Notes: generated by a model from the sequence alone, not told the origin. A stretch of DNA of 64,000 nucleotides from a bacterium (GCA_021159225.1 JAGGSE010000232.1:23015-87014), one strand, 5' to 3'; positions 5,982 through 63,724 are shown, counted from the stretch's first letter. Numbers and translations: made by a program.

Positions 5982-7121
5982 ATGGAACTCGTAGAGTTTA
6001 AGGGTCGTAAAGGAATTTGGATTACTTACAAGGGCCGCAAGATCTTTATCCCTGAGGAAAGAATTCATCAACGAGAGTTGGGGTCACGTTCCCGTCTTGA
6101 TCCAAAGATGAAAGTCCTCGGAGGTATCACTTTAGCAACTTTAGCCGCTTACTTTTTAAAACCCGGTACGCCCATTTCTGAACTTTTTCGCAATAAAAGG
6201 TTTGTCGTGATCGCTAAACACCCAAATCCCACTCCCTCAATGAGAGAGAAGTTTTATGACATGATCACGTCGGCAATAATGGGGATGCGTGTAGTTCGTC
6301 CCAAAGCGGGCGCTAAACTTCCCAAAACTGCAGGCGTTGTTCATACCTGGTCGAAAGAAGCCTTTAAGATGAAACTTCCTAAGATTCAAGACTATGACTT
6401 GATGTCTGCTATTGACGATAAAGCGGTATTTCCAAAGCTGTTCAAGGACGACCCTAAAATTGTTCCTCAAACCTTCTTACTTCGTGAGTTTCACAGTCTT
6501 GAATCCGCACGCTATGCGTTCCAACGTGCTGGGAAGGGATTTGTGATTAAACCGCGCATTGGCTCACTTTCGAAGGAACTCCCTACTCATGAGTGGAGTG
6601 ACAAACGTTTGATGAAATATATTGAACAGCACGGTGGTCCTAATAATGTGATCATACAAGAAATGTTACCTTTTAGAAATGAGTTTCGTGTTCACTATGT
6701 GAATGGGAAGGTTTACTCTATTACACATCGTCGTTTTCCTGATCCTTTCCGTAAAATTTACAATAAAATCTTTTATCGATTCGGAATGGAGGGTGGTTCT
6801 TCTATTCCAGTGCTCAACCCTGTGAAACGTAAACGACTTAAGGAGTTTGTGACTCAAGCTATGAAACTATATGAGAAGAACGCCCATGTAGGGTTTGACA
6901 TCGTCGAATTACCTGACGGTTCCTTCCGATTTATTGAAGGAAACCCTGTTCCAGGTAGTTTAATGAACCCTGTTATTGCCAGGAAGTTACACAAGACTGT
7001 CACTGGAGTATGGACTAATGACTTACGCGCCGTTGCTCTAGCTGGAGGCGCGGCGGGTTTATGGTGGGCAGGAGAAGGAGTTTCCGAAGTACGGAAGAAG
7101 GAGAAGCAGCTGTGGGTGTAG
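5982..7121 (+). CDS. ATP-grasp ligase (RimK/GshB-like) with N-terminal WITYKGRKIFI motif and hydrophobic segments
   Basis: ATP-grasp signatures are FVIKPRIGSLSK, VIIQEMLPFRNEFRVHYVNGKVYSI and GFDIVELPDGSFRFIEGNPVPGS. Hydrophobic stretches are GGITLATLAAYFL and AVALAGGAAGLWWAG. Confidence 0.65.
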   Translation: MELVEFKGRKGIWITYKGRKIFIPEERIHQRELGSRSRLDPKMKVLGGITLATLAAYFLKPGTPISELFRNKRFVVIAKHPNPTPSMREKFYDMITSAIMGMRVVRPKAGAKLPKTAGVVHTWSKEAFKMKLPKIQDYDLMSAIDDKAVFPKLFKDDPKIVPQTFLLREFHSLESARYAFQRAGKGFVIKPRIGSLSKELPTHEWSDKRLMKYIEQHGGPNNVIIQEMLPFRNEFRVHYVNGKVYSITHRRFPDPFRKIYNKIFYRFGMEGGSSIPVLNPVKRKRLKEFVTQAMKLYEKNAHVGFDIVELPDGSFRFIEGNPVPGSLMNPVIARKLHKTVTGVWTNDLRAVALAGGAAGLWWAGEGVSEVRKKEKQLWV

Positions 7122-7495
7122 GAAAACACGTGTTGATTGACGTGTTTGAGGTGCCTTTTGAAGTTTTAGATAATGAGAAGTTGGTTCTTCAGTGTTTGAT
7201 TCGGGCCGCTAGTAAGGCCGGCGCAACCATACTTCATTCATTCGTTCATCATTTTGAACCTCACGGGGTAAGTTGTGTGGTTGTGATCTCTGAGTCTCAC
7301 TTTTCTATCCATACTTGGCCTGAACGACTTTACGCGGCCGTTGATTTGTTCACTTGCGGCGATTCCGTTGATTTAGATGTAGCGGTTCAGGAGATTCTTC
7401 AGTTTCTTAAAGGTAATCCTAAAGTTTTAGTCTTGGAGAGGGGGGATGTACATGATCGCCGATTGGGGACTTCACCTGATTTTAGATTTGTATGA
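7112..7495 (+). CDS. speH: S-adenosylmethionine decarboxylase proenzyme, small bacterial/archaeal class
   Basis: AAGGAG lies 9 nt before GTG 7112. GKHVLIDVFE...VVVISESHFSIHTWPERLYAAVDLFTCG contains the Glu-Ser self-processing site and the HTWPE and FTCG signatures. Confidence 0.8.
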   Translation: MGVGKHVLIDVFEVPFEVLDNEKLVLQCLIRAASKAGATILHSFVHHFEPHGVSCVVVISESHFSIHTWPERLYAAVDLFTCGDSVDLDVAVQEILQFLKGNPKVLVLERGDVHDRRLGTSPDFRFV

Positions 7496-7823
7496 TTGTG
7501 ATGAGTTCCTTATTTCTAGTAAGGGCAAACTTAGGGAATTCGTATTCGAACTTTGTGATATTCTTGATGTGAAAAGGTACGGTGACCCTATAATTGAGTG
7601 GTTTGGTAACGGCCCTTCTGAAGGATACACTCTTGTTCAGTTAATAGAGACGTCTCTGGTATCAGGACATTTTGCTCCTTCTAGCCGGACTGCTTACATT
7701 GATGTGTTTAGTTGTAAATTTTTTGACCCGATTAAGGTTCAGGAGTACATTGGAGGTTTCTTTAAAGCTAAGAAGGTTGATTCTACCCTTCTTGAAAGGG
7801 GGTCGAAGTTACGTGAAGTATAA
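7446..7823 (+). CDS. AdoMetDC-like paralog with altered processing site
   Basis: It aligns by eye with the upstream gene: GLHLILDLYDC...LVQLIETSLVSGHFAPSSRTAYIDVFSC...LLERG. ES-SH is replaced by ETS, and HTWPE is lost. Confidence 0.6.
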   Translation: MYMIADWGLHLILDLYDCDEFLISSKGKLREFVFELCDILDVKRYGDPIIEWFGNGPSEGYTLVQLIETSLVSGHFAPSSRTAYIDVFSCKFFDPIKVQEYIGGFFKAKKVDSTLLERGSKLREV

Positions 7824-9012
7824 GATAACATTTCTGGGTTCTAAGGGTATGATTGAGGAAAGTTCCCCTCATCACAAACTGAGAACAGGTATTGTAGTCG
7901 AGACTCGCAGAGCGCGTTTCCAAATTGACTGTGGTGAAGAGGAGTTCTTTGATAACCTTAAGGACGTGGATTTTTTGTATGTAAGTCATTGTTATGATGA
8001 GAAGACTGAAGTTTTTACTAATCGTGGCTGGAAGAGGTTTACTGAGTTAAGTAGTTCGGATTACGTCGCGACATTGGATGAGGACGATCGATTAGTGTTT
8101 GAGAAGCCTATAGATTATATTGAGCAAGATTACACTGGGTTAATGTATTACTTGAGTACGGATTTTTTGAATATGATGGTGACTCCTAATCACAATTTGT
8201 ATATTTCGGAGAACTTTGATGACCCTTCCTTTTCTCTTATCCCTGCCGCGAGGTGTTTTGGGCGCCCTAAGATGTTTACGTGCTCTTTTAAATGTGAACA
8301 ACACGATACTTCTCTGGCACAAGCAGTTTTTTCTGACAGTCGTTCCTCTACCGCTAAGTCAGTAACCTCCGGTAGTCAAGAGTCCTGGGTTCCTTACGAC
8401 GGGAAAGTTTACTGTGTTACTTTACCCGAGTACACTAGGCATATACTGTTGACTCGCCGTGAGGGTAAAGTGTGCTTTTCCGGGAACTCACACCCAGATC
8501 ATGTAAGTGGCTTAAAACACAAGGAAATTCCGACGACGTTGGTGTCTACGTCGCTCGTTCGACGTCAATTAGTCCGTAATTGGAAGGTCACTCCTACTCT
8601 TTTTTCTTCACTTCCTTTTGAGTACGAAGATGTGTCGTTAAAAGCTGTTTCTTGTTTTCACTCTATTCGATGTCCTATGTGGGGTGTTGTAATAAATAAC
8701 GAATTGGGTATCTTTACGGATGTTATACGACCACGTGCTGGCTGGGGGATTCTCAAGGGACTCCGAGTTTACATTGGTGATGGCTCCGCGATTAACCATC
8801 CCATAATCCGCGTTAAGGAAAAGGGAGGAGAACCGTTCGGGCACACTTGTATGAAATCTCAACTCCGATATGCTTCTCAATTGAATTGGCAAACAGTTGT
8901 TTTTACTCATCTTGGCCGCCAGCCTGTTTTGAAAGGTGATGAGAGAGTGAGAGAAATTCTCGGTGTGGAGGATTTAATTATTGCGAAGGATGGACTTACA
9001 ATCGAAGTTTGA
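7813..9012 (+). CDS. metallo-beta-lactamase-fold hydrolase interrupted by a mini-intein
   Basis: GTG 7813 gives VKYKITFLGSKG (an MBL-type N-terminus). LYVSH / intein / SHPDHVSG restores HxHxDH, and later His (CFHS), Asp (IFTDV) and His (FTHLG) motifs are present. Confidence 0.75.
   Translation: MKYKITFLGSKGMIEESSPHHKLRTGIVVETRRARFQIDCGEEEFFDNLKDVDFLYVSHCYDEKTEVFTNRGWKRFTELSSSDYVATLDEDDRLVFEKPIDYIEQDYTGLMYYLSTDFLNMMVTPNHNLYISENFDDPSFSLIPAARCFGRPKMFTCSFKCEQHDTSLAQAVFSDSRSSTAKSVTSGSQESWVPYDGKVYCVTLPEYTRHILLTRREGKVCFSGNSHPDHVSGLKHKEIPTTLVSTSLVRRQLVRNWKVTPTLFSSLPFEYEDVSLKAVSCFHSIRCPMWGVVINNELGIFTDVIRPRAGWGILKGLRVYIGDGSAINHPIIRVKEKGGEPFGHTCMKSQLRYASQLNWQTVVFTHLGRQPVLKGDERVREILGVEDLIIAKDGLTIEV
7990..8487 (+). 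mobile_element. mini-intein (166 codons, no endonuclease domain) in the MBL-fold gene
   Basis: It has Cys1 (CYDEKTEVFTNRGWK), block B TPNH, and C-terminal KVYCVTLPEY...VCFSGN followed by Ser+1. It is in frame, and its removal recreates a conserved host motif. Confidence 0.8.
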
Positions 9013-9220
9013 GTCAGAGGTGCCGAAGTACAGACATCGAACACGAAAACGTAGAATTCCTGTTTACTATCGACTTAGAAGGGAGTACCGAAGTAGGGTA
9101 CCGTGGTTTCGTGAGTGGGCCGTTCTAAAACGTTATGTCACCGTGGATGATGCTGAAAAAGCTGTTAAGGTCTTGAACGCTAAGGATAAGTGGTTTGAAT
9201 ATAGTTTAGATCCTTATTAA
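8981..9220 (+). CDS. small basic protein, unknown function
   Basis: The 79-aa ORF is very Arg/Lys/Tyr rich (KYRHRTRKRRIPVYYRLRREYRSR). The start is uncertain. Confidence 0.3.
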   Translation: MRRMDLQSKFESEVPKYRHRTRKRRIPVYYRLRREYRSRVPWFREWAVLKRYVTVDDAEKAVKVLNAKDKWFEYSLDPY

Positions 9221-9230
9221 GGAGATTGGC

Positions 9231-10229
9231 GTGAAATTTAGAGTCCCTCCTGAGTGGATTGAGAAATGGATTACCAAGGGCGGACGTAGAGTTCCGATTA
9301 TTAAAAAGGAGTTCCGCCAAGCTTTCTTGTGGACTTTCGCCTTTGCCAGGAAGTCTCCTCTTCGAGTTGTTGACTCCCGGTCTATTAATGAAACGCTAGA
9401 AGGGGCGGGCTTCGAGACTTTTAGGTTTCTCGAGAACGTTGCAGCGCCTCATCCCGAAGTCCGCAGGAAAGTCCTTCCTCAGGCTGATGCATTTTTGAAT
9501 TTTTTTATTGGGAGTGCTGAGAGTGAAAGAGCATTTCGTAATGTAAGTTTATCCTTTCATCGTTATACGTCGTCTGCTCCAATAGGGTGTTATGTTGATG
9601 CCTATATTCTTAGGTCGACGGGGAAAATTGAAAGAGAGCTCACACAACAGTGCCTTGAACAATTTTCCGCAAATGATCGTGTCCATCTCAGACACGTTCT
9701 GGGAATTACTCTTCCTAAGGTTCAAAGGGTTCCTTCTGAGGTTAAGGATCTTGCTGAGTACGCGTTTCCGCAAGGATCGGGGGCTATTAGTATGCTAGTG
9801 TACTCCCCTAGGCGGCGTGATGTTCCTTATGATCTTACTTTTCTCCATGAATGCTGTCATTTTGTTCAGAGTCAGCTTGCTACTCGGGCTCCTGATTATT
9901 ATGTAGAATTTGGTCGAAGTGTTTATGCTCCTTACCTTCAGAGAGTTTTGCCTGAAGCTGTACAGCTCTTTCAGCAAGCTACTAAGCATTATGGTTCGGT
10001 ACGCCCTTCAGTTAGGCGTAATTTTGTGAGGTTGCAGTTTTATCGGGCTTTAATGGACGACCCTTTTAACACGTCCGTGATATCAATTCCCAGCCTTCAA
10101 AGTCCAGAAGAGGGCTTTTCTGAGGCTTTTTCGCTTTTTGCACATTCAAATCTTCAGCATCGTAGGTTTCTTAGACTTAAGTGGCCTGAGGCACGTGACT
10201 ATTTTGCTACTTTGGAAGGAGTACTGTGA
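9231..10229 (+). CDS. HExxH zincin-like protein with N-terminal WITKGGRRVPI motif
   Basis: AAGGAG precedes GTG 9231. FLHECCHFV (HExxH) is followed about 85 aa later by EEGFSEAFSLFA. The portal fusion C-terminus shows the same HExxH...E.F.E.F arrangement. Confidence 0.5.
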   Translation: MKFRVPPEWIEKWITKGGRRVPIIKKEFRQAFLWTFAFARKSPLRVVDSRSINETLEGAGFETFRFLENVAAPHPEVRRKVLPQADAFLNFFIGSAESERAFRNVSLSFHRYTSSAPIGCYVDAYILRSTGKIERELTQQCLEQFSANDRVHLRHVLGITLPKVQRVPSEVKDLAEYAFPQGSGAISMLVYSPRRRDVPYDLTFLHECCHFVQSQLATRAPDYYVEFGRSVYAPYLQRVLPEAVQLFQQATKHYGSVRPSVRRNFVRLQFYRALMDDPFNTSVISIPSLQSPEEGFSEAFSLFAHSNLQHRRFLRLKWPEARDYFATLEGVL

Positions 10230-10468
10230 TGACTGAATTCGACCCAATTCGGTGGCTGTCCAAGTATCGAGCAAAACATCTCGGAGAAGATCACTTCTCC
10301 CTGTGCTCTTTTTGTAAACATTTCCGTGAGGATTGTACTTGTGTAGCGTTTCCCAAAGGAATTCCAGGAAAGTACTTGTTCTTTGATGTCTATCACCTTG
10401 AGAAAGATCCTTCTCAGAAAGGGGATGCTGTATTTGAATTGTCTTCTCGTTTTGTGAAGGAGAAGTAA
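10226..10468 (+). CDS. small Cys/His-rich protein
   Basis: The 80-aa product contains CSFCKHFREDCTCVAFPKGIP. It has a GTGATGA-type overlap with the upstream stop. Confidence 0.4.
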   Translation: MMTEFDPIRWLSKYRAKHLGEDHFSLCSFCKHFREDCTCVAFPKGIPGKYLFFDVYHLEKDPSQKGDAVFELSSRFVKEK

Positions 10469-14572: not shown

Positions 14573-17500
14573 GTGGAGAGACAACTTGAGAAGAAGGAGA
14601 AGGAACAACAGGTTAAGGAGCGATTAGTTGGAGAGACTTCGATCACTGCAGGAACTTTCGCAAGTTTGGTTACTTCTCTTTCCGCCTCGCAACTCCGTCA
14701 AATCTATAAAGAGACTAATGTTGTGAGGCGGTGTGTTGACCATATTGCGAGTTCTGTTGCGGACCTTCCGCGAGAGTATGATGTAAAGTTTGGTTTGAAG
14801 AAAAGTGAAGTAATCGATCTTATTTTTGTGCGCGAGACTATAACTGGAGAGACTTTTCGAGATGTGTTAATCGCTTTGACAGTGGATTTGTTGGTGTTGA
14901 ACAAAGGTGTGTTAGTACCTTTGAAGACATTTGGCGGAAGGTTAACCGGATTTACGGCACGCGATGCAGCCACTTTTTCTCCAGTGTATGAGAAAGACGG
15001 CAGGCTTCGTGGGTTCATTCAACAAGTCGGCTTGGGTAAGGTGTATAAGTTTCGCCCAGATGAGTTAGTGTACATTCAACTTATTCCTAAAACTTACACT
15101 GCTACTGGAGGGTCTATCTTAGAGTCTCTTACTTATGAAGTTACGAGCTTGTTAAAGAACTTAGTGAAAAGCGATCCTGAATCTAGGAAGCCTATCGGGA
15201 CATTTATTTTTCCGGAGAGTTTGGACGAGGCAGTTGTTAATAGGTTTCAAGAGGACTTAACCTCGTTAGTATCTGGAGGTAAAGTGAAAATCCCCGTGGT
15301 ATGGGGCGCTGGTAAAGGGGAGTGGATCGAGTTGGTTAAACAATTTGACATTCAGATGGTTGCTACGTTCTTGGATCGCTTAGATTGGCTAGTTCGGAGC
15401 GCTTTTGGATTTGTGCCTCCTGGAAGTAGTTTACTTCAGTCACGACCTAACGAAGATTTGATGTATTCTACCTTAGTCCCTGTGGTTGCTCGGGCGATCC
15501 AGAATCGACTGAATCGGTTTCTTAAACCTTATGGAGTTACTTTTAGTTTTAAGATTCCTCCTGCACACTCGTTGCAACGTATTATTGAAGGGACTAAGTC
15601 AGGGTTGATCTCACCTAATGAGGCCCGTCAGTTTATGTACTTACCACCGGTTAAAGGCGGCGATCAGTTGTCAGTTATGCAGCCTCAAGGTTTAACTCCT
15701 GTAGGGAAGAGTGGGCAACAATCTCCTGTGGTACCTCTCTCGGACGCTAAACAAGATACAGATATTACTCGCTCGCTTTCTATAGAAGAAGTGAAACAGC
15801 TTAGGAATCTCTCTCTTTTGTCCGATGAGAAGGTAGCACGGTTTGTTCTTAGGAGAATTAAGTTGCTGAAATCGATGCAAGAGGAGTTAAGAGAGGCAGT
15901 TCTGGATTATCGTTCTTCTTTTGAAGAGAAGGTGATGTTGCGTCAGGATACCCCTGCTTTACCTTCTTATGTGCCTTTCTTACTACGAGTAGAAGGGATC
16001 ATTGATAATTATGAGGCCCAGTCGATTGCGCTGGGTTATGAACGCGTGCTCCAGTTTTGGAACAGACGCGAGTTCGATAAGGATCTGATTGACGCTGAGA
16101 TTGCTGAACACGATCGACGACTTCGTCGAGAGTCTATTCGGAGTTGGAAAGAGCGTTTAGATTCTATTCACAATGAAGCAAAAAGAGGTGAGTGGGATCA
16201 AGTTAAAAAAGCTCTTGACAATTTTATACGCGCGATTATTGCCGCCGCAGGGTTTGTCACTTTGTTTGCGAATCTCCCTCTTGTACTTGTGTCTAAGTTT
16301 TTTGAGGAGACACAAGGAGTGCTCTTACGCTGGGTGGGCATATCTGATGATGTTACATGTTATGATGAAGCAACTAAAGTGTTGACGGATCGGGGGTGGA
16401 AGTTCTTTAAGGATTTGGATGGTACGGAGAGGTTGTTGAGTATTAACCCTGATGATTTGACTCAGGTTGAGTGGCTTAAACCTGTTGCCTATCAGACGTT
16501 TGAGTACGATGGTGAGATGATTCATTTCGAGGGCTATCAAACGGATCTACTCGTGACACCTGATCATCAGTGTTTTGTGTATGATAATGGAAGACTTCGG
16601 AAAGTTCGCGCAGGAGAGCTGACTCAATTTGCGAAGGTTTCTTTCTACCATGGTGTTCCCGTCGATGTTGCTGACGTGTCTAGTATTTCCTGTAGTGAAG
16701 CAGAAGTTCGCCTTTCTTACTACAAGGGGAAGGTCTACGACGTGACTCTTCCTAAATGGCACACTCTTTACATCATGCGCAATGGGAAGTGTATGTGGAG
16801 TGGTAATTGCGAAGACTGTGCAGCTCTTCAAGGGCGCGTTTTTAAACCATCCACGCTTGAACTGCTTCAAACTTGGCCCGGTTATGGTGTGCGTTGTGGC
16901 CATAACTGTAGGTGTGCCCTTGAACCTGTTTCTAATATTACGCAAGCAAGTGTTAACGAGTGGATCGGTAAAGTTATCAAGTTTAGGAATTTGCACGTCC
17001 CTCTAAAGGAAGCAGCGCTTGTTTATTCTGACGTAATCGAACATATCGATAAGAAGATCGCAGAAGCTCTCAAAAAGAACCCTCACTTACGGGAGCCTTC
17101 GTACGTTGCTTTATTTAAGGAAATCCGATTGCGCGAGACTTTAACCCAACCTAAATACGATGCTATACGAAATATACTCGAAATCCCCGCCTCTTTTACT
17201 GAGGAGCAGATTCGTTCAGCTTTTGTCGATGCAGTCGCCCTGAACGTCCTGTTACGTCAGAACTTTCAGTATCCTAGCTCACCTTTCGTCTCTGAGATAA
17301 TGTCTATAATGGAGCGGGCCAGGAAAGTGCTTTGGAACGAGCAATTAAGTAAGCTTTTACCTTCAGAGTTGAAAGAGTCTTGGTTGGAAGGTGATTTCGC
17401 TCCTTTTGAGAAATTGTCACTTAAGCTGTTTGATATTCCAGTTAAGGCTTACTTTGATCCCAGAGAGTTTTTTACTTACATGTTCCGGGCGTCCATTTTT

Positions 17501-18841
17501 AGCCCTCATCGAGAGGATATAGTAGGGATGCCCGCTTTTCGAGAACTCCTGGCAACCCATGTGTGGTCCCCAACTACTTATGAGAATTGGCTTAACCGTG
17601 TTTATAAGGCCCGTTCCGCCCCTTGGCGGGCCACGTTAACTCCTGATAGAGTACTTACTCGACTGGAATACGTTGACTCAGAGTTCCGTGATAGATTGGT
17701 AGAAATCCTTAAGAGTTATCCGATGTTACGAGTTCCATCTTTTTGGGATGGGTTGAAGGGAATTAAGTTGTCAGATGTATCTCGCTACGACGCGTCTTAT
17801 AGTTTGGAGGGGACCTATGATGAGTTTGTGAAGTCCTTTGTTGGTTCTATCTTGACTACGGGGGATACATTTCAGTTCCTCCACGAGCTAGGCCATCATG
17901 TGTTTGAGCGTCATTTTACCGCGCGCTCTACACTAAGAGACGCGTTTGCTTATGTGTACCGTGAACGAGTTTTGATCCCGTTTTACGAGCAAGTTTTACC
18001 TTATTTGACTGAAAAGGAAGCTCAAAAGTTCATGGGGTACATGAACGAGATGCTTGATGCAAGTGAGAAGAGAACTCTTGGGAGCTTTTTCTTAGGGTCT
18101 CGAGACGTATTTAGAGAGGAAATTTTTAAGCCTATTTATCCTAAGTTACAAGAGGTGATGCGGAACTGGGCACTTCCGATGCGACTGTACTCATTACAGA
18201 GCATCGACGAATCCTTTGCCGAGTTGTTTGCCACTTATATACGTAACCCATCGGTGTTGTACTTCAGTGACCCCGAGTTGTACTTGTTTATGGAATCGCT
18301 CTTGCAGAACCTTGCTGTACGTCCAGAAACTTTGATAAGTAAGCACCCTATGTGGAAACGTGTTTTTGAGGCCCTTTCACGTATAGGTTTAACACGGAGT
18401 CAGATAAAGCAACTTCTTCCGAACCTTCTGTGGGCACATATTAGAGAAGATGTTGGGTTTGAGGAGTTGATAGCGTTGTTCGAGAGCGCTGCTACTGCAG
18501 AGGGCGAAGACTTACGGAAGAAGATAAAAGATATTGTCGAGCGCTTTTTCAAAGCGCCTGAGAAGAAGAAAATGCCTAGTTCTGAGCCGAAACCCAAAGA
18601 GATTAGGAAGCCTCGTAAGGCACCTTCTCTTCCCGAAAAGACTCTAGTAACTCTAAAGGATGTGCGCGAAGTTCTTGAGAAGACTTTGAAGCTCGAAGGT
18701 AGAGACTTAGAGGTTTTTATGGACAAGATTGTTTCGGTTGTAGCTGAAGGTAAGATGAGTATGATTGATGTGTATGAGAAATTGACTTCTTTCAAGACTA
18801 AAAAGGAGGCTTTGAAGTGGCTAGCCGGTTTGAAGAAGTAA
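14573..18841 (+). CDS. portal protein fused to a MuF-like head-morphogenesis domain (intein-interrupted) and an HExxH zincin-like C-terminal region
   Basis: AGGAGG lies 6 nt before GTG 14573. The N-terminal third is portal-like (LRQIYKETNVVRRCVDHIASSVADLP...). After intein removal the MuF signature reads ISDDVT-CEDCAALQGRVF...CGHNCRC. The C-terminal region has FLHELGHHVF ... DESFAELFATYI and ends in a Lys/Glu-rich tail. Confidence 0.75.
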   Translation: MERQLEKKEKEQQVKERLVGETSITAGTFASLVTSLSASQLRQIYKETNVVRRCVDHIASSVADLPREYDVKFGLKKSEVIDLIFVRETITGETFRDVLIALTVDLLVLNKGVLVPLKTFGGRLTGFTARDAATFSPVYEKDGRLRGFIQQVGLGKVYKFRPDELVYIQLIPKTYTATGGSILESLTYEVTSLLKNLVKSDPESRKPIGTFIFPESLDEAVVNRFQEDLTSLVSGGKVKIPVVWGAGKGEWIELVKQFDIQMVATFLDRLDWLVRSAFGFVPPGSSLLQSRPNEDLMYSTLVPVVARAIQNRLNRFLKPYGVTFSFKIPPAHSLQRIIEGTKSGLISPNEARQFMYLPPVKGGDQLSVMQPQGLTPVGKSGQQSPVVPLSDAKQDTDITRSLSIEEVKQLRNLSLLSDEKVARFVLRRIKLLKSMQEELREAVLDYRSSFEEKVMLRQDTPALPSYVPFLLRVEGIIDNYEAQSIALGYERVLQFWNRREFDKDLIDAEIAEHDRRLRRESIRSWKERLDSIHNEAKRGEWDQVKKALDNFIRAIIAAAGFVTLFANLPLVLVSKFFEETQGVLLRWVGISDDVTCYDEATKVLTDRGWKFFKDLDGTERLLSINPDDLTQVEWLKPVAYQTFEYDGEMIHFEGYQTDLLVTPDHQCFVYDNGRLRKVRAGELTQFAKVSFYHGVPVDVADVSSISCSEAEVRLSYYKGKVYDVTLPKWHTLYIMRNGKCMWSGNCEDCAALQGRVFKPSTLELLQTWPGYGVRCGHNCRCALEPVSNITQASVNEWIGKVIKFRNLHVPLKEAALVYSDVIEHIDKKIAEALKKNPHLREPSYVALFKEIRLRETLTQPKYDAIRNILEIPASFTEEQIRSAFVDAVALNVLLRQNFQYPSSPFVSEIMSIMERARKVLWNEQLSKLLPSELKESWLEGDFAPFEKLSLKLFDIPVKAYFDPREFFTYMFRASIFSPHREDIVGMPAFRELLATHVWSPTTYENWLNRVYKARSAPWRATLTPDRVLTRLEYVDSEFRDRLVEILKSYPMLRVPSFWDGLKGIKLSDVSRYDASYSLEGTYDEFVKSFVGSILTTGDTFQFLHELGHHVFERHFTARSTLRDAFAYVYRERVLIPFYEQVLPYLTEKEAQKFMGYMNEMLDASEKRTLGSFFLGSRDVFREEIFKPIYPKLQEVMRNWALPMRLYSLQSIDESFAELFATYIRNPSVLYFSDPELYLFMESLLQNLAVRPETLISKHPMWKRVFEALSRIGLTRSQIKQLLPNLLWAHIREDVGFEELIALFESAATAEGEDLRKKIKDIVERFFKAPEKKKMPSSEPKPKEIRKPRKAPSLPEKTLVTLKDVREVLEKTLKLEGRDLEVFMDKIVSVVAEGKMSMIDVYEKLTSFKTKKEALKWLAGLKK
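16358..16807 (+). mobile_element. mini-intein (150 codons) in the MuF-like domain of the portal fusion
   Basis: It has Cys1 (CYDEATKVLTDRGWK), block B TPDH, and C-terminal KVYDVTLPKW...CMWSGN followed by Cys+1 (the first Cys of CEDC). It is clearly homologous to the intein at 7990-8487. Confidence 0.8.
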
Positions 18842-29291: not shown

Positions 29292-30498
29292 TGAGTTTCG
29301 GGCCTAAGTGACACTGGGCCCGTAAAACCTCTGCTGATCAACGGGGAAACACAATGGTATCCACTCAGCTAAATGAGATTTTAGATGGATTAATTTTCAG
29401 TGATGGGCATATTGCTTATTGTAAGGCTGGTGACTATAGGTTCGAGTTGGGGACGACCAAGCGTTTGTACGCAGAGCAAGTTTGTAACCTTCTTCGTCCT
29501 GTTATTTCCTGTTCTATTAGAGAACAAGTACGTATTGGATTTGGGAAGAAATTTATCTCTTACAGAGTTGTTGGATATAAAGCTCCTGTTATGAAGAATC
29601 TTCACTATCGTTGGTATGATGATAAAAAGAAAAAGCTTCCCAAAGATTTTAGATGGACGCCTACTACTTTGAACGTTGCTTATTGTGGTGATGGTACTGT
29701 TATTGAGAATAGCCCGACTATGTGCTTAAATAGTTGGGCGGTTCCCGAGGTGAAAGAGATAGTTAGGTGCTTTGAAGAGTTGGGCTTGTATGGGACGGTT
29801 GTCCAAACCCCAACAGGACCGATTTTTAGGTTACATCAAGATTGTGCCCTAGATTTCTTCGAGTACATAGGAGACCCACTAATTCCGTTTCACTCTTATA
29901 AGTGGATTACCGTTGTCAACCCCCAGCAAGCAGTTCGCGCGACTCTGTGGGACGATGACCTAGCTCAAAAGGTTGCGAGGTGTATTAAGAAGATTATGAT
30001 TTTACGCGTTTGGGGAGGTTCGAAGGAACGGCGGTACTTGTCGTACTTTCCTGAGTTAGTCGTAATGGTTAATGATAAAGACGTTAAAGATGCCCTTCAG
30101 AGAATCAGAACTTCAAGGAAGAAAGGTGAGGTTGTAGTTAGAGGTCGACAAGCGAAACGTGTTTTAGAAAGGGTCCATTTGTTTCTTCCGGACGATAAAC
30201 GAATGTTAGCTACAATTGCGTTAGCTTTGCCTCTTGGGCGGAGGAAGAAAGATTTGAAGGAAGTTCTATATCAGTTTTTCTGGACGAAATTTAATGAATT
30301 AAATCCGCCCGAGAGAAGACGGGGACCCAAAAGAGAGTTGAATAGCGAACTGCGGCTGCAGAGACTGAGCGTAGAGGACACTAACCTCTTTCAGGATCTG
30401 GTTAGTGTATACGACAGTCCGACCCCTACGGTGACGTAGGGAAGTAGTTGTACTACTTGCCCGAAAGGGTCAAGAAAAATAACAGGTTAAAGCGGGTG
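29292..30498 (+). mobile_element. hypothetical self-splicing (group I-type) intron carrying the homing endonuclease gene
   Basis: This is inference only. An orphan RBS plus 16-codon ORF lies upstream, and the tail tube ORF has no RBS. A U precedes the proposed 5' splice site and a G precedes the proposed 3' splice site. Hairpins, including a GAAA tetraloop, flank the endonuclease ORF. Confidence 0.25.
29354..30439 (+). CDS. LAGLIDADG-family homing endonuclease
   Basis: Two LAGLIDADG-type motifs are present: LDGLIFSDGHI and LNVAYCGDGTV. The C-terminal region is basic. Confidence 0.75.
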   Translation: MVSTQLNEILDGLIFSDGHIAYCKAGDYRFELGTTKRLYAEQVCNLLRPVISCSIREQVRIGFGKKFISYRVVGYKAPVMKNLHYRWYDDKKKKLPKDFRWTPTTLNVAYCGDGTVIENSPTMCLNSWAVPEVKEIVRCFEELGLYGTVVQTPTGPIFRLHQDCALDFFEYIGDPLIPFHSYKWITVVNPQQAVRATLWDDDLAQKVARCIKKIMILRVWGGSKERRYLSYFPELVVMVNDKDVKDALQRIRTSRKKGEVVVRGRQAKRVLERVHLFLPDDKRMLATIALALPLGRRKKDLKEVLYQFFWTKFNELNPPERRRGPKRELNSELRLQRLSVEDTNLFQDLVSVYDSPTPTVT

Positions 30499-62222: not shown

Positions 62223-62408
62223 GTGAAACAAACACGAAAAGTCAAGGTATTTGATCTCTCGAGGTTGATCGACGACGAGTGGATTCACAAGGCTCCACAT
62301 GAAGGAGTTCCCTTTACTACGTTGATAGGCGACGCTATTTCGCTGACTCCTATCTCAGAAGCGCGTCTGCTACGTCGTAAACTCAAGAGAAGGGAGAGGA
62401 GGAAATGA
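62223..62408 (+). CDS. small hypothetical protein
   Basis: AGGAGG lies 6 nt before GTG 62223. The 61-aa product has a basic C-terminus. Confidence 0.4.
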   Translation: MKQTRKVKVFDLSRLIDDEWIHKAPHEGVPFTTLIGDAISLTPISEARLLRRKLKRRERRK

Positions 62409-63724
62409 ACTACTTTCGCACTTCTTTTTTCCACAAGATTCGCAACAAACTTTTCAGGATCTACTTGAATGGAAGTGGAGAAGAGGGTGTCTTCATTACA
62501 AAGGGAGGTCGGAGGATATTCCTAAAGTTAAAGTCCAAGGGAGCTCGCGTCAACGAGCAACGTGTTAAATACTGGATGGATAGAATTGACGAAGTAGGAC
62601 TATACAAGCTGGTAAAGGATCGTAACTTTAAAACCTTCTTAGGGAACACAGGAAAATATGTACATCCTCTCTTCTCAGAACTATATCGTACTTGGCCAAA
62701 CAAACAGGATAAGTTGTGGTATAGGAAGTTGATCGAGAACTGGCATTGGAACCGTTCTAGAGCTAGGGATACTCTACAGAAGCTAGTTTCTGGGGAACTT
62801 AAGAACCCTTTTTGGGATGAAGTATCCGCACTGAACAGGGCACTTTTGCTAAAAGAGTCTAAGGAACTACCTCGTATTACTTTGTACAGAGGTGTGTGGG
62901 TTTCAACCCCTTATTCGCCAACCTACGCGCACCATATGATCCAGTTTTTTGCAGACTTAAAAGAGATGCAACTCAACCCACAGAAGTACATTCTCAAGGA
63001 CTTCCCGTTCGCATCTTTTTCAACCCTTCAAAGTCAGGCTCAGAAGTTTGGAATGGTCGATCACGCCAAAATCCCTGTCTCCCGTATTGTTGGGCACTAT
63101 AGGATTGGTTTTGGTTCAACAAGAGAGAAGGAATTTATCGTCCGTACATCGTACAGGAGAGTTCCTGAGTTAATAACACGGGCAAGTTCGAGTTTAAAGA
63201 GCGCGAAGAAGTGGCCGGACATACAGTATTCCCCACTCCCGGAGACCGCTACTAGAGTTTACAGGTTTAATAGAGAAGTGTTCTCTGAAGTACCTTTTCG
63301 GAGGAACTTCGCTTTTCGCGAAATTCGCCTAGTAACACACGCGGGTGACACTGATTACGTAGCGGGCTCCCACCGCATTCACTACGTAACACTTCAATTT
63401 AACAGCGCGTTCTATGACCGAACAAAAACGTTTTTAGAATCCATGCAAGTCTTAAACAGGGAATGGGTGTTTTACGTTAAGAATCGAGACGACGCCCTCG
63501 AACTCTACTCAACTTTCTGTGATCAACTGACTCGCGGCCGTAGCCGTGATCTTGTTTCCAACATCCCCAAAGTAATTGATCGAGTTACGAAAAACTACGA
63601 CTTAGAGTGGTATTTTGCAATTCCAACTACTCCTAAGAGTCTGCTCACGTCTCCATTTAGTACTACCAAAGACACGACGCACGCTTTTTACTTCGCCTCA
63701 AGGGATATACTCAAACCCTTCTAA
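62405..63724 (+). CDS. ADP-ribosyltransferase-like protein (R-S-E class) with N-terminal FITKGGRRIFL motif
   Basis: ITLYRGV supplies the Arg, FASFSTLQS the STS-like turn and REKEFIVR the ExE, with about 45 and 40 aa spacings. The layout resembles C3/VIP2/Alt-type ARTs. Confidence 0.55.
   Translation: MNYFRTSFFHKIRNKLFRIYLNGSGEEGVFITKGGRRIFLKLKSKGARVNEQRVKYWMDRIDEVGLYKLVKDRNFKTFLGNTGKYVHPLFSELYRTWPNKQDKLWYRKLIENWHWNRSRARDTLQKLVSGELKNPFWDEVSALNRALLLKESKELPRITLYRGVWVSTPYSPTYAHHMIQFFADLKEMQLNPQKYILKDFPFASFSTLQSQAQKFGMVDHAKIPVSRIVGHYRIGFGSTREKEFIVRTSYRRVPELITRASSSLKSAKKWPDIQYSPLPETATRVYRFNREVFSEVPFRRNFAFREIRLVTHAGDTDYVAGSHRIHYVTLQFNSAFYDRTKTFLESMQVLNREWVFYVKNRDDALELYSTFCDQLTRGRSRDLVSNIPKVIDRVTKNYDLEWYFAIPTTPKSLLTSPFSTTKDTTHAFYFASRDILKPF

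Follow-up and report, generated by a model that had tools for sequence, protein, structure and literature searches.

The window and its three tagged genes

The window analysed here, a 64,000-nucleotide stretch of DNA (GCA_021159225.1, JAGGSE010000232.1:23015-87014), has the appearance of a siphovirus-like phage genome, with a portal open reading frame (ORF), a large terminase, a protease/capsid block, tail proteins and a 2205-aa tape-measure-like protein. A close cultured relative of this phage was not found, the best terminase match being at most 25% identical. Three of its genes, encoding an ATP-grasp ligase (p1), a zincin-like protein (p2) and a putative ADP-ribosyltransferase (p3), share a short peptide motif, hereafter called the tag. 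A first-pass annotation, made from the sequence alone, had placed one copy in each of these genes, and all three were recovered there, each near the N-terminus of a well-supported ORF whose start codon is preceded by a Shine-Dalgarno-like sequence. The carriers and their tags are as follows.

5982..7121, + strand: p1, 379 aa; tag, hydrophobic helix (residues ~41-58), ATP-grasp ligase, C-terminal helix
6018..6050, + strand: tag copy 1, WITYKGRKIFI, residues 13-23 of p1; the predicted structured unit covers residues 4-33 (nt 5991-6080)
9231..10229, + strand: p2, 332 aa; tag, then zincin-like metallopeptidase (HECCH ... SPEEGFSEAF)
9267..9299, + strand: tag copy 2, WITKGGRRVPI, residues 13-23 of p2
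62405..63724, + strand: p3, 439 aa; tag, then putative R-S-E ADP-ribosyltransferase (TLYRG ... FASFST ... EKEF)
62492..62524, + strand: tag copy 3, FITKGGRRIFL, residues 30-40 of p3, following a family-conserved 28-residue leader

Three profile hidden Markov models (HMMs) of the motif scored the window copies at 20-36 bits, compared with 5-6 bits for the next-best segment of the window, and a relaxed regular expression applied to all six frames of the window detected no fourth copy. The significance of the three-way match was assessed with a shuffle test on the first 45 residues of the 71 called genes, in which the best 11-mer block shared by three proteins was scored by BLOSUM62 sum of pairs. 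The observed block scored 101, while the maximum among 300 within-protein shuffles was 87 (0/300 matched), and most of the shuffles yielded no qualifying triple at all. Outside the motif, p1, p2 and p3 show no mutual similarity. At the nucleotide level, third codon positions vary at nearly every conserved motif residue (ACT/ACC/ACA, GGC/GGA/GGT, CGC/CGT/CGG), and DNA similarity among the copies stops at the motif edges, indicating that selection acts on the peptide.

Two forms of the motif and their distribution

The motif of the window represents a divergent version of a module that is widespread and about 20-30 residues long. Two forms were recognized: the first, GxW[VI]TxxG[RK]x[VI][FP][IL], includes the window copies (window form), and the second, [VI]xF[IV]RxxGR[IV][IV]PI[RK], is referred to here as the F-I-R form. 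They can be aligned position by position, with an aromatic residue at -5, an invariant glycine at 0, R/K at +1, an aliphatic residue at +3, P/F at +4 and I/L at +5. The first-pass annotation had described an 11-residue N-terminal motif. Its occurrence stood up, as did the N-terminal placement of the window copies, while the length had to be extended to the unit of about 20-30 residues (predicted hairpin plus helix), and "N-terminal" proved too narrow a label, as the motif is found in relatives at domain junctions or at the C-terminal end too.

Searching phage and metagenome sequence for the domains that accompany the motif returned many unrelated carriers: DNA-pattern scans and profile searches revealed more than 200 further copies across viral and metagenome contigs, distributed over more than 100 unrelated protein families. 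The DNA pattern for [VI]xF[VI]RxxGR[VI][VI]PI matched 58 IMG/VR stretches, compared with about one expected by chance according to our own estimate, which assumes equal base frequencies and 3-6e10 bases. These 58 loci (L012-L069; L-numbers denote related DNA stretches and P-numbers related proteins) represent one uncultivated myovirus-like group (~40 kb). A profile HMM run on them detected 182 copies, 165 of which are unique, with up to seven copies on six ORFs in a single locus. N-terminal copies account for 129 of the unique ones (one of these is possibly internal), the median distance from the nearest Met to the match start being 4 residues. The other 36 end no more than 25 residues before the stop codon: 34 lie within 14 residues of it and 14 end exactly there. 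Terminal position is thus seen in 164 of the 165 unique copies.

When the motif was masked, 161 tagged proteins fell into 106 BLAST clusters, which upholds the earlier view that the motif is a transplanted module and not a sign of paralogy. Some of these clusters mix N-tagged and C-tagged members, and one conserved family (L035 768-1328, L060 1223-1750) carries two tag copies, one at each end. Carriers of the F-I-R form have almost no matches in Pfam or PHROGs, save a few GNAT acetyltransferases and glycine-zipper segments, and many of them are small and basic, with Gly/Ala-rich hydrophobic, glycine-zipper-like segments. In a species-representative genome collection, the pattern was found only in a few metagenome-assembled genomes, mostly on 45-kb phage-like contigs. 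Three contigs of 26-46 kb (CBDCYX010000009.1, CBDCYX010000011.1 and CBDCYX010000004.1; L072-L080) are binned in a 'Bacteriovoracaceae' metagenome-assembled genome and encode, besides many tagged proteins, the terminase, portal and sheath of this phage group. They are probably phage genomes binned with a bacterium, which could be either a hint to the host or a binning artefact.

For the window form, patterns of the type G[RKH]WVTIxGRxVFI recovered 13 stretches from viral and 27 from metagenome sequence. In IMG/VR, a strict pattern back-translated from the window motif matched only a single close relative contig, and searches for related loci with p2, p3 and the motif alignment led to the same single contig. 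At the protein level, a homology search with the short motif alignment or the concatenated proteins returned nothing; an exhaustive HMMER scan with p1, p2 and p3 concatenated gave 61 non-self relatives. With 132 tag sequences as queries, only 22 tagged proteins were retrieved, all of them very short and uninformative on domain architecture. Absence of the motif from homologues was looked for, and what was found is that the closest relatives of p1, p2 and p3 all retain it (P0004, P0039 and P0005, respectively), as do P0054 and P0055. The best BLAST hit between p3, P0005 and the window-form carriers is the motif itself, and the same holds for one of the hits of p2. The motif matches no Pfam or PHROGs model, and no paper in the searchable literature prints its core strings. 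Whatever its function, the motif defines a large protein-module family that lacks a model in either database.

It is hardly credible that the resemblance is due to chance or belongs to the ordinary fold of each enzyme, or that a Tat signal, an AbrB-like domain, a membrane anchor or another generic signal accounts for it. The string RRIFLK in p3 does resemble the Tat consensus RRxFLK, GR[IV][IV]P recalls the AbrB/MazE signature, and a hydrophobic helix follows the tag in many carriers. Chance is contradicted by the outcome of the shuffle test and by hundreds of independent copies; a generic signal or fold part does not agree with copies that are also C-terminal or located at internal junctions; and a membrane anchor does not agree with soluble ADP-ribosyltransferase, GNAT and SLT carriers that have no hydrophobic segment. 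A Tat signal peptide was rejected because the twin arginine is not conserved and because 36 copies are C-terminal and several are internal. An AbrB/MazE/SpoVT domain was also rejected, since the proline lies at +4 from the glycine and not at +5, out of the G-[RQ]-x-x-[IV]-P register, and p1-p3 and their homologues gave no PF04014 hit at E<=0.1.

Tag carriers in the window and their families

The gene product p1, for which Pfam gave weak R2K_3 and R2K_2 hits, was modelled by AlphaFold2 from 38 homologues with a mean predicted local distance difference test (pLDDT) score of 86.5. The top Foldseek matches of the model were ArgX, LysX, RimK and Ddl (E=3e-12), which bears out the earlier reading of p1 as an ATP-grasp ligase. 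More than 50 homologues of p1 were collected, and the tag is present on many of the single-domain ones. Among these ATP-grasp proteins, at least 15 have it at the N-terminus, whereas P0053, P0058 and P0059 have it at the C-terminus and P0004 at both ends. Distant single-domain members begin with [VI][RK]F[IV]RxxG[RK][IV][IV]PI[RK], and the same form stands at the C-terminus of P0053, P0058 and P0059. The large multidomain homologues, which are fused to SNF2, InPase, peptidase C39 or LigD domains, do not carry the motif. The gene for P0004, the closest homologue of p1 (L004 5603-7302, also L005 and L006), immediately follows a holin-family gene (Phage_holin_4_1) and has the protease, capsid and connector genes upstream of it. 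As well, a hairpin of the ATP-grasp core, E[FY]RVHxxNGxxxxxxHR (residues ~232-250 of p1, window ~6675-6731), is conserved in the homologues and is superficially tag-like (FxRxxxGxx); a loose regular expression for the tag matched it once, in P0064. This likeness is probably a coincidence of hairpin sequence patterns.

In the p2 family, the conserved tag stretch reads P.EWIEKW[IV]T..G[RH]R.P[IV].KK, and the HExxH motif and the downstream Glu are invariant in the homologues P0039, P0054, P0055 and P0060. These homologues gave weak hits to the anthrax lethal factor family (ATLF), and two further stretches, L107 and L099, share the tag-plus-ATLF layout of p2, with L107 above the Pfam cut-off. The gene directly after p2 is the following.

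10226..10468, + strand: small Cys-rich protein

This protein is homologous to the N-terminal domain (residues 1-65) that precedes the tag in P0054 and P0055 (BLASTP 49% identity, E=6e-11). Because the Cys-rich part is a separate gene in the window and fused in P0054 and P0055, a functional link to the tag-plus-zincin module is likely, and, judging from this sequence relationship, the protein may act together with the tag or with the peptidase.

The product of p3 has a single homologue, P0005, in which the R / S-x-S / E-x-E triad is conserved. No match to p3 was obtained in Pfam, PHROGs or PDB sequence searches, and hhalign against ADP-ribosyltransferase domains aligned the R and S-x-S motifs with a score that was not significant. 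As to the earlier description of p3 as ADP-ribosyltransferase-like, the residue pattern is therefore present, while none of these four comparisons confirmed the fold. On a contig related to that of p3 (L008, L009), a second tagged gene, reading GRKGIWVTVRGKRIFI, lies beside the p3 homologue.

Predicted structure of the module

According to the AlphaFold2 model of p1, residues 1-30 are predicted with a pLDDT of about 90 and form strands at 4-6, 9-16 and 19-24, followed by a helix at 25-33; a low-confidence linker (33-37) separates the tag helix from the rest of the protein. The model of p2, which is of low confidence, places strands at 10-16 and 19-24 and a helix at 26-41. The module is thus predicted to be a two-stranded beta-hairpin with the invariant glycine in the turn, usually followed by a short helix. 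A tight hairpin with a two-residue turn agrees with the N-G or G-G pairs often seen at the turn and with the way in which hydrophobic and basic residues alternate. In the F-I-R form, F is conserved in 90% of the copies, G in 100%, P in 91% and I in 83%, and position +2 is I/V in 95%. Positions -3 and +2 from the glycine are occupied by R with I/V in the F-I-R form and by T with R/K in the window form. These two positions would face each other across the hairpin, and their pairing is consistent with cross-strand compensation.

Since a strongly basic character marks both the motif and the residues beside it (R at -3 and +1, R/K at +6, K at +8 and +9), the hairpin might be speculated to bind nucleic acid in the manner of an arginine-rich beta-hairpin peptide and to tether its carriers to the phage DNA end or to RNA, which would let them accompany the genome. 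A precedent is gp7 of phage SPP1, a MuF-family protein that is encoded beside the portal and binds DNA. We consider this very unlikely, as the best-conserved positions are aromatic, Gly, aliphatic and Pro, which would better suit a specific protein-protein interface, and the window form is flanked by acidic residues.

Linkage of the tag to the portal

The gene order of the myovirus-like group is conserved, with the terminase and portal genes followed by an array of tagged genes and with a second tagged cluster 1-2 kb upstream of the tail sheath gene. A portal gene is present in 38 loci; their 122 tagged ORFs all have the orientation of the portal, and in 25 of these loci a tagged ORF starts less than 100 nt from the portal end. 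Tagged ATP-grasp homologues of p1 are located inside such post-portal arrays, examples of which, with up to six tagged genes, are given here.

L029 3816-6446: post-portal array of tagged genes
L051 1711-4816: post-portal array of tagged genes
L060 660-3597: post-portal array of tagged genes

Carriers of the window form include fusions in which the motif stands within or at the end of the portal protein itself, as well as free-standing effectors and tandem arrays.

L098 and L121: portal, motif, ADPrib_exo_Tox
L091: portal, motif, ART-PolyVal
L113: portal, motif, DUF7699
L093 and L112: portal, motif, unknown domain
L124: portal with the motif at its extreme C-terminus
L084: solo motif plus ART-PolyVal
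L099 and L107: solo motif plus ATLF-type zincin
L097: zinc ribbon, motif, GNAT
L105 and L109: SLT lytic transglycosylase with a C-terminal motif
L104 and L108: tandem arrays of N-tagged genes

Within the fusion proteins, the motif stands isolated between low-complexity linkers in which charged residues, Gly or Pro abound. The window form often has an acidic run ending in Gly (EEEG, DDDG, GEEG) before it and a conserved xGQSxxDAM stretch after it. The motif HMMs detected no tag on the portals of the F-I-R group or on the portal of the window.

A layout with the motif before variable effector domains and behind a constant portal part is also that of polymorphic toxins, so the motif could be imagined as a recombination junction that promotes swapping of effector cassettes, like VENN of CdiA or the Rhs junction, and that has no function as a peptide. 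This is highly improbable: synonymous positions are saturated, the copies share no flanking DNA identity, and terminal copies occur on free-standing genes that have no constant partner to recombine with.

The portal gene and other features of the window

The portal gene of the window encodes further parts after its portal domain, and a stretch within them had been considered as a possible tag.

14573..18841, + strand: portal ORF, 1422 aa; PHROG portal hits and a weak Pfam Phage_portal hit
16958..17005, + strand: possible degenerate tag EWIGKVIKFRNLHVPL at the junction of the MuF-like and zincin-like parts, seen by BLASTP only

The ORF comprises a portal domain, then an intein-split MuF-like motif, and then a C-terminal HExxH region, the MuF and zincin parts being read from motifs in the translation. 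The earlier claim of a MuF-zincin fusion on the portal gene thus holds for the portal domain, which PHROG hits confirm, and for its other two parts stays a reading of motifs. The intein-like insertion (residues ~590-760) splits the MuF-like motif as WVGISDDVT / C...MWSGN / CEDCAALQGRVF, and the HExxH region at the end of the ORF (FLHELGHHVFERH ... SIDESFAELFATY) resembles the active-site motifs of p2. The degenerate tag copy was rejected, as it reached 15 bits and E~10 in BLASTP against p2 residues 8-24 and no motif HMM detects it. The portal ORF is a candidate hub or receptor for the tagged solo effectors and a candidate covalent counterpart of them.

Moreover, a 446-aa ORF with the look of a metallo-beta-lactamase fold is present at 7672-9012 (+ strand), in which the H-x-H-x-D-H motif is apparently interrupted by an intein (LYVSH / C...SGNS / HPDHVSG); this ORF gave a weak Pfam Hint hit, and its insertion is kept in the close relative L001. 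A LAGLIDADG homing endonuclease (PHROG E=3.5e-20) is encoded inside the structural module at 29354-30439 (+ strand). With two inteins and this endonuclease, the genome is rich in self-splicing and homing elements. Finally, two adjacent ORFs at 7061-7495 and 7446-7823 (+ strand), located between p1 and the intein-containing gene, resemble S-adenosylmethionine decarboxylase proenzymes, with an ESHFSIHTWPE motif, as far as can be read from their sequences.

Proposed function of the tag

We propose that the tag is a portable peptide that docks at the portal or procapsid, so that effectors are packaged in the virion and delivered with the DNA, a reading to which we would give an even chance. In such a mechanism, the hairpin module would dock any carrier onto one shared receptor, located at the portal vertex or in the procapsid interior. 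Candidates for this receptor are the inner capsid surface, the scaffold and the portal crown, as well as further copies of the hairpin. Docked effectors would be packaged and subsequently delivered into the next host together with the DNA, and the ATP-grasp, zincin-like and putative ADP-ribosyltransferase proteins of the window would be free-standing equivalents of the effector domains that are fused to portal or MuF proteins elsewhere. A docking tag is the most economical explanation because the module is portable, terminal and separated by linkers, occurs on many carriers per genome, and is linked to the portal both by gene order and by fusion. It is also favoured by the nature of the carriers, which belong to kinds that are known or proposed to be virion-delivered, namely ADP-ribosyltransferases, zincins, GNAT acetyltransferases, SLT transglycosylases and small membrane-active proteins. 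The presence of many different tagged proteins per genome suggests a receptor available in many copies, such as the scaffold or capsid interior, or self-association, and the portal fusions suggest a receptor in the portal region.

Several points weigh against this proposal. Receptor binding, virion packaging, ejection and the identity of the receptor are all inferred from context. The tagged genes of the window do not form a post-portal array: on the same strand as the portal, p1 and p2 lie 4-8 kb upstream of it among metabolic-looking genes, and p3 lies 44 kb downstream. The small, basic, glycine-zipper carriers could be membrane-active or DNA-associated proteins rather than cargo enzymes, and copy counts per locus are partly ascertained, because the loci were found through the motif itself. 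Cultured-phage records contained no tagged relative when queried with p3, the portal of the myovirus-like group, a 659-aa tagged protein and a motif-plus-ADP-ribosyltransferase segment. The sole cultured-phage hit was a MuF-ADP-ribosyltransferase fusion in Bacillus phage S4-3 (PQ069205.1, L101 3402-5429) on which no tag was detectable, indicating that the tag is not universal to MuF-linked effectors. In addition, recruitment would be redundant in the portal fusions, since the effector is already tethered there, which leaves roles in processing, self-association or ejection.

The persistence of the motif in these covalent fusions makes processing or release, as well as hairpin-hairpin assembly, a serious alternative or an added function. 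As a processing signal, the motif would be a cleavage or recognition site for the prohead protease or a zincin and would mark the boundary of the effector module, so that effectors are cut off their portal or MuF carrier, or a terminal propeptide is removed as in the T4 capsid targeting sequence. The motif does stand exactly at portal-effector junctions within flexible linkers, the gene complement of the window includes a head protease-like protein and two zincin-like regions, and the acidic run ending in Gly is often found before the window form. Autoprocessing of polyvalent proteins by their zincin domains has been proposed in passages of Iyer et al. (PMC5512222). Such a signal, which could coexist with docking, is nevertheless not very probable, because a structured hairpin of 12-20 residues, conserved across phage groups with unrelated proteases, exceeds what a cleavage site typically needs. 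Cutting at C-terminal copies, 14 of which end exactly at the stop codon, would release nothing, and no conserved scissile motif is evident after the N-terminal or before the C-terminal copies.

Self-association offers another route to the portal vertex, in which copies on the portal tail and on the cargo would extend a shared beta-sheet and build a mixed assembly that needs no separate receptor. The same motif is indeed found on portals (C-terminal or internal) and on cargo, some proteins have one copy at each end (BLAST cluster 0, P0004), and up to 6-7 tagged proteins are encoded per locus. We regard this as unlikely, as the portals of the F-I-R group and of the window bear no detectable copy.

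Going beyond docking as such, several uncultivated lineages of tailed phages may share a transferable cargo-loading peptide, a predicted hairpin of about 20 residues that would be the viral counterpart of the encapsulin targeting peptides. It would suffice to recruit arbitrary proteins (enzymes, membrane-active peptides, lytic transglycosylases) to the portal vertex or procapsid and would set which proteins each phage injects, the portal-effector and MuF-effector fusions being its covalent extreme. We hold this broader proposal to be possible, at somewhat less than an even chance. Should the tag prove to be a loading signal, the proteins that a phage injects with its DNA could be listed by simple sequence searching; for uncultivated phages, this set is currently almost invisible. 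One mechanism would then link solo effectors to the polyvalent proteins fused to portal or MuF domains, and a short peptide would become available for engineering phages to package and deliver chosen proteins.

Comparison with known systems

The effector repertoire of the tag carriers overlaps with that of polyvalent proteins, which likewise comprises ADP-ribosyltransferase, zincin and GNAT domains with InPase and SNF2 neighbours. Both are encoded in late or structural gene modules, the tagged genes of the related loci mostly beside the portal and those of the window at the larger distances from it given above. The overlap with polyvalent and MuF-linked proteins noted in the first-pass annotation is confirmed by tags on ART-PolyVal, ADPrib_exo_Tox, ATLF-type zincin and GNAT domains and by homologues of p1 fused to SNF2, InPase, C39 and LigD, and its remark that the domains sit in separate genes also agrees with p1, p2 and p3, each of which has one catalytic region. 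In this respect the three differ from polyvalent proteins, which have at least two effector domains behind a portal or MuF part, while the portal ORF of the window, with its MuF and zincin parts read from motifs, itself fits the layout of a portal/MuF-effector fusion. In passages of Iyer et al. 2017 (PMC5512222), solo proteins of the polyvalent type that are encoded with late genes were proposed to be deployed from the capsid. The searched passages of the same paper mention ATP-grasp only in another context and do not describe a short motif shared by solo and fused effectors.

Among targeting peptides, the capsid targeting sequence (CTS) of T4, carried by the internal proteins and Alt, is likewise a short terminal peptide on unrelated proteins, including an ADP-ribosyltransferase, that are packaged in the head and injected with the DNA. 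The T4 CTS, a stretch of about 10 residues, is confined to the N-terminus, attaches to the scaffold core and is cut off by the gp21 protease, whereas the present motif is a longer predicted hairpin that occurs at either terminus or at portal-effector junctions in several uncultivated phage groups. By inspection, neither motif consensus ([VI]xF[IV]RxxGR[IV][IV]PI, GxWVTIxGRxVFI) resembles that of the T4 CTS. Similarly, encapsulin targeting peptides are short, conserved and terminal, and they serve to load a variety of enzymes into a shell of HK97 fold, their cargo genes lying beside the structural gene. They differ in being Gly/Leu-rich and in having the inner surface of the shell as their receptor, while in the related loci the genes that carry the tag described here adjoin the portal gene.

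Pre-toxin junctions, such as VENN in CdiA, PT-TG and those of Rhs proteins, also place a motif between a constant delivery part and a variable C-terminal effector, as is seen in L098, L091, L113 and L093. They show no sequence similarity to the tag, which is found on free-standing proteins and at C-termini as well and is conserved as a peptide only. Hub-docking motifs, such as the sliding-clamp-binding motif and the C-terminal tip of single-stranded DNA-binding protein, resemble the tag by analogy only, in that unrelated enzymes bring one short terminal peptide to a common partner. Taken together, these comparisons suggest that the tag belongs to a kind of cargo-targeting or docking peptide for which precedents are known, although no sequence relationship to any of the compared systems was found.

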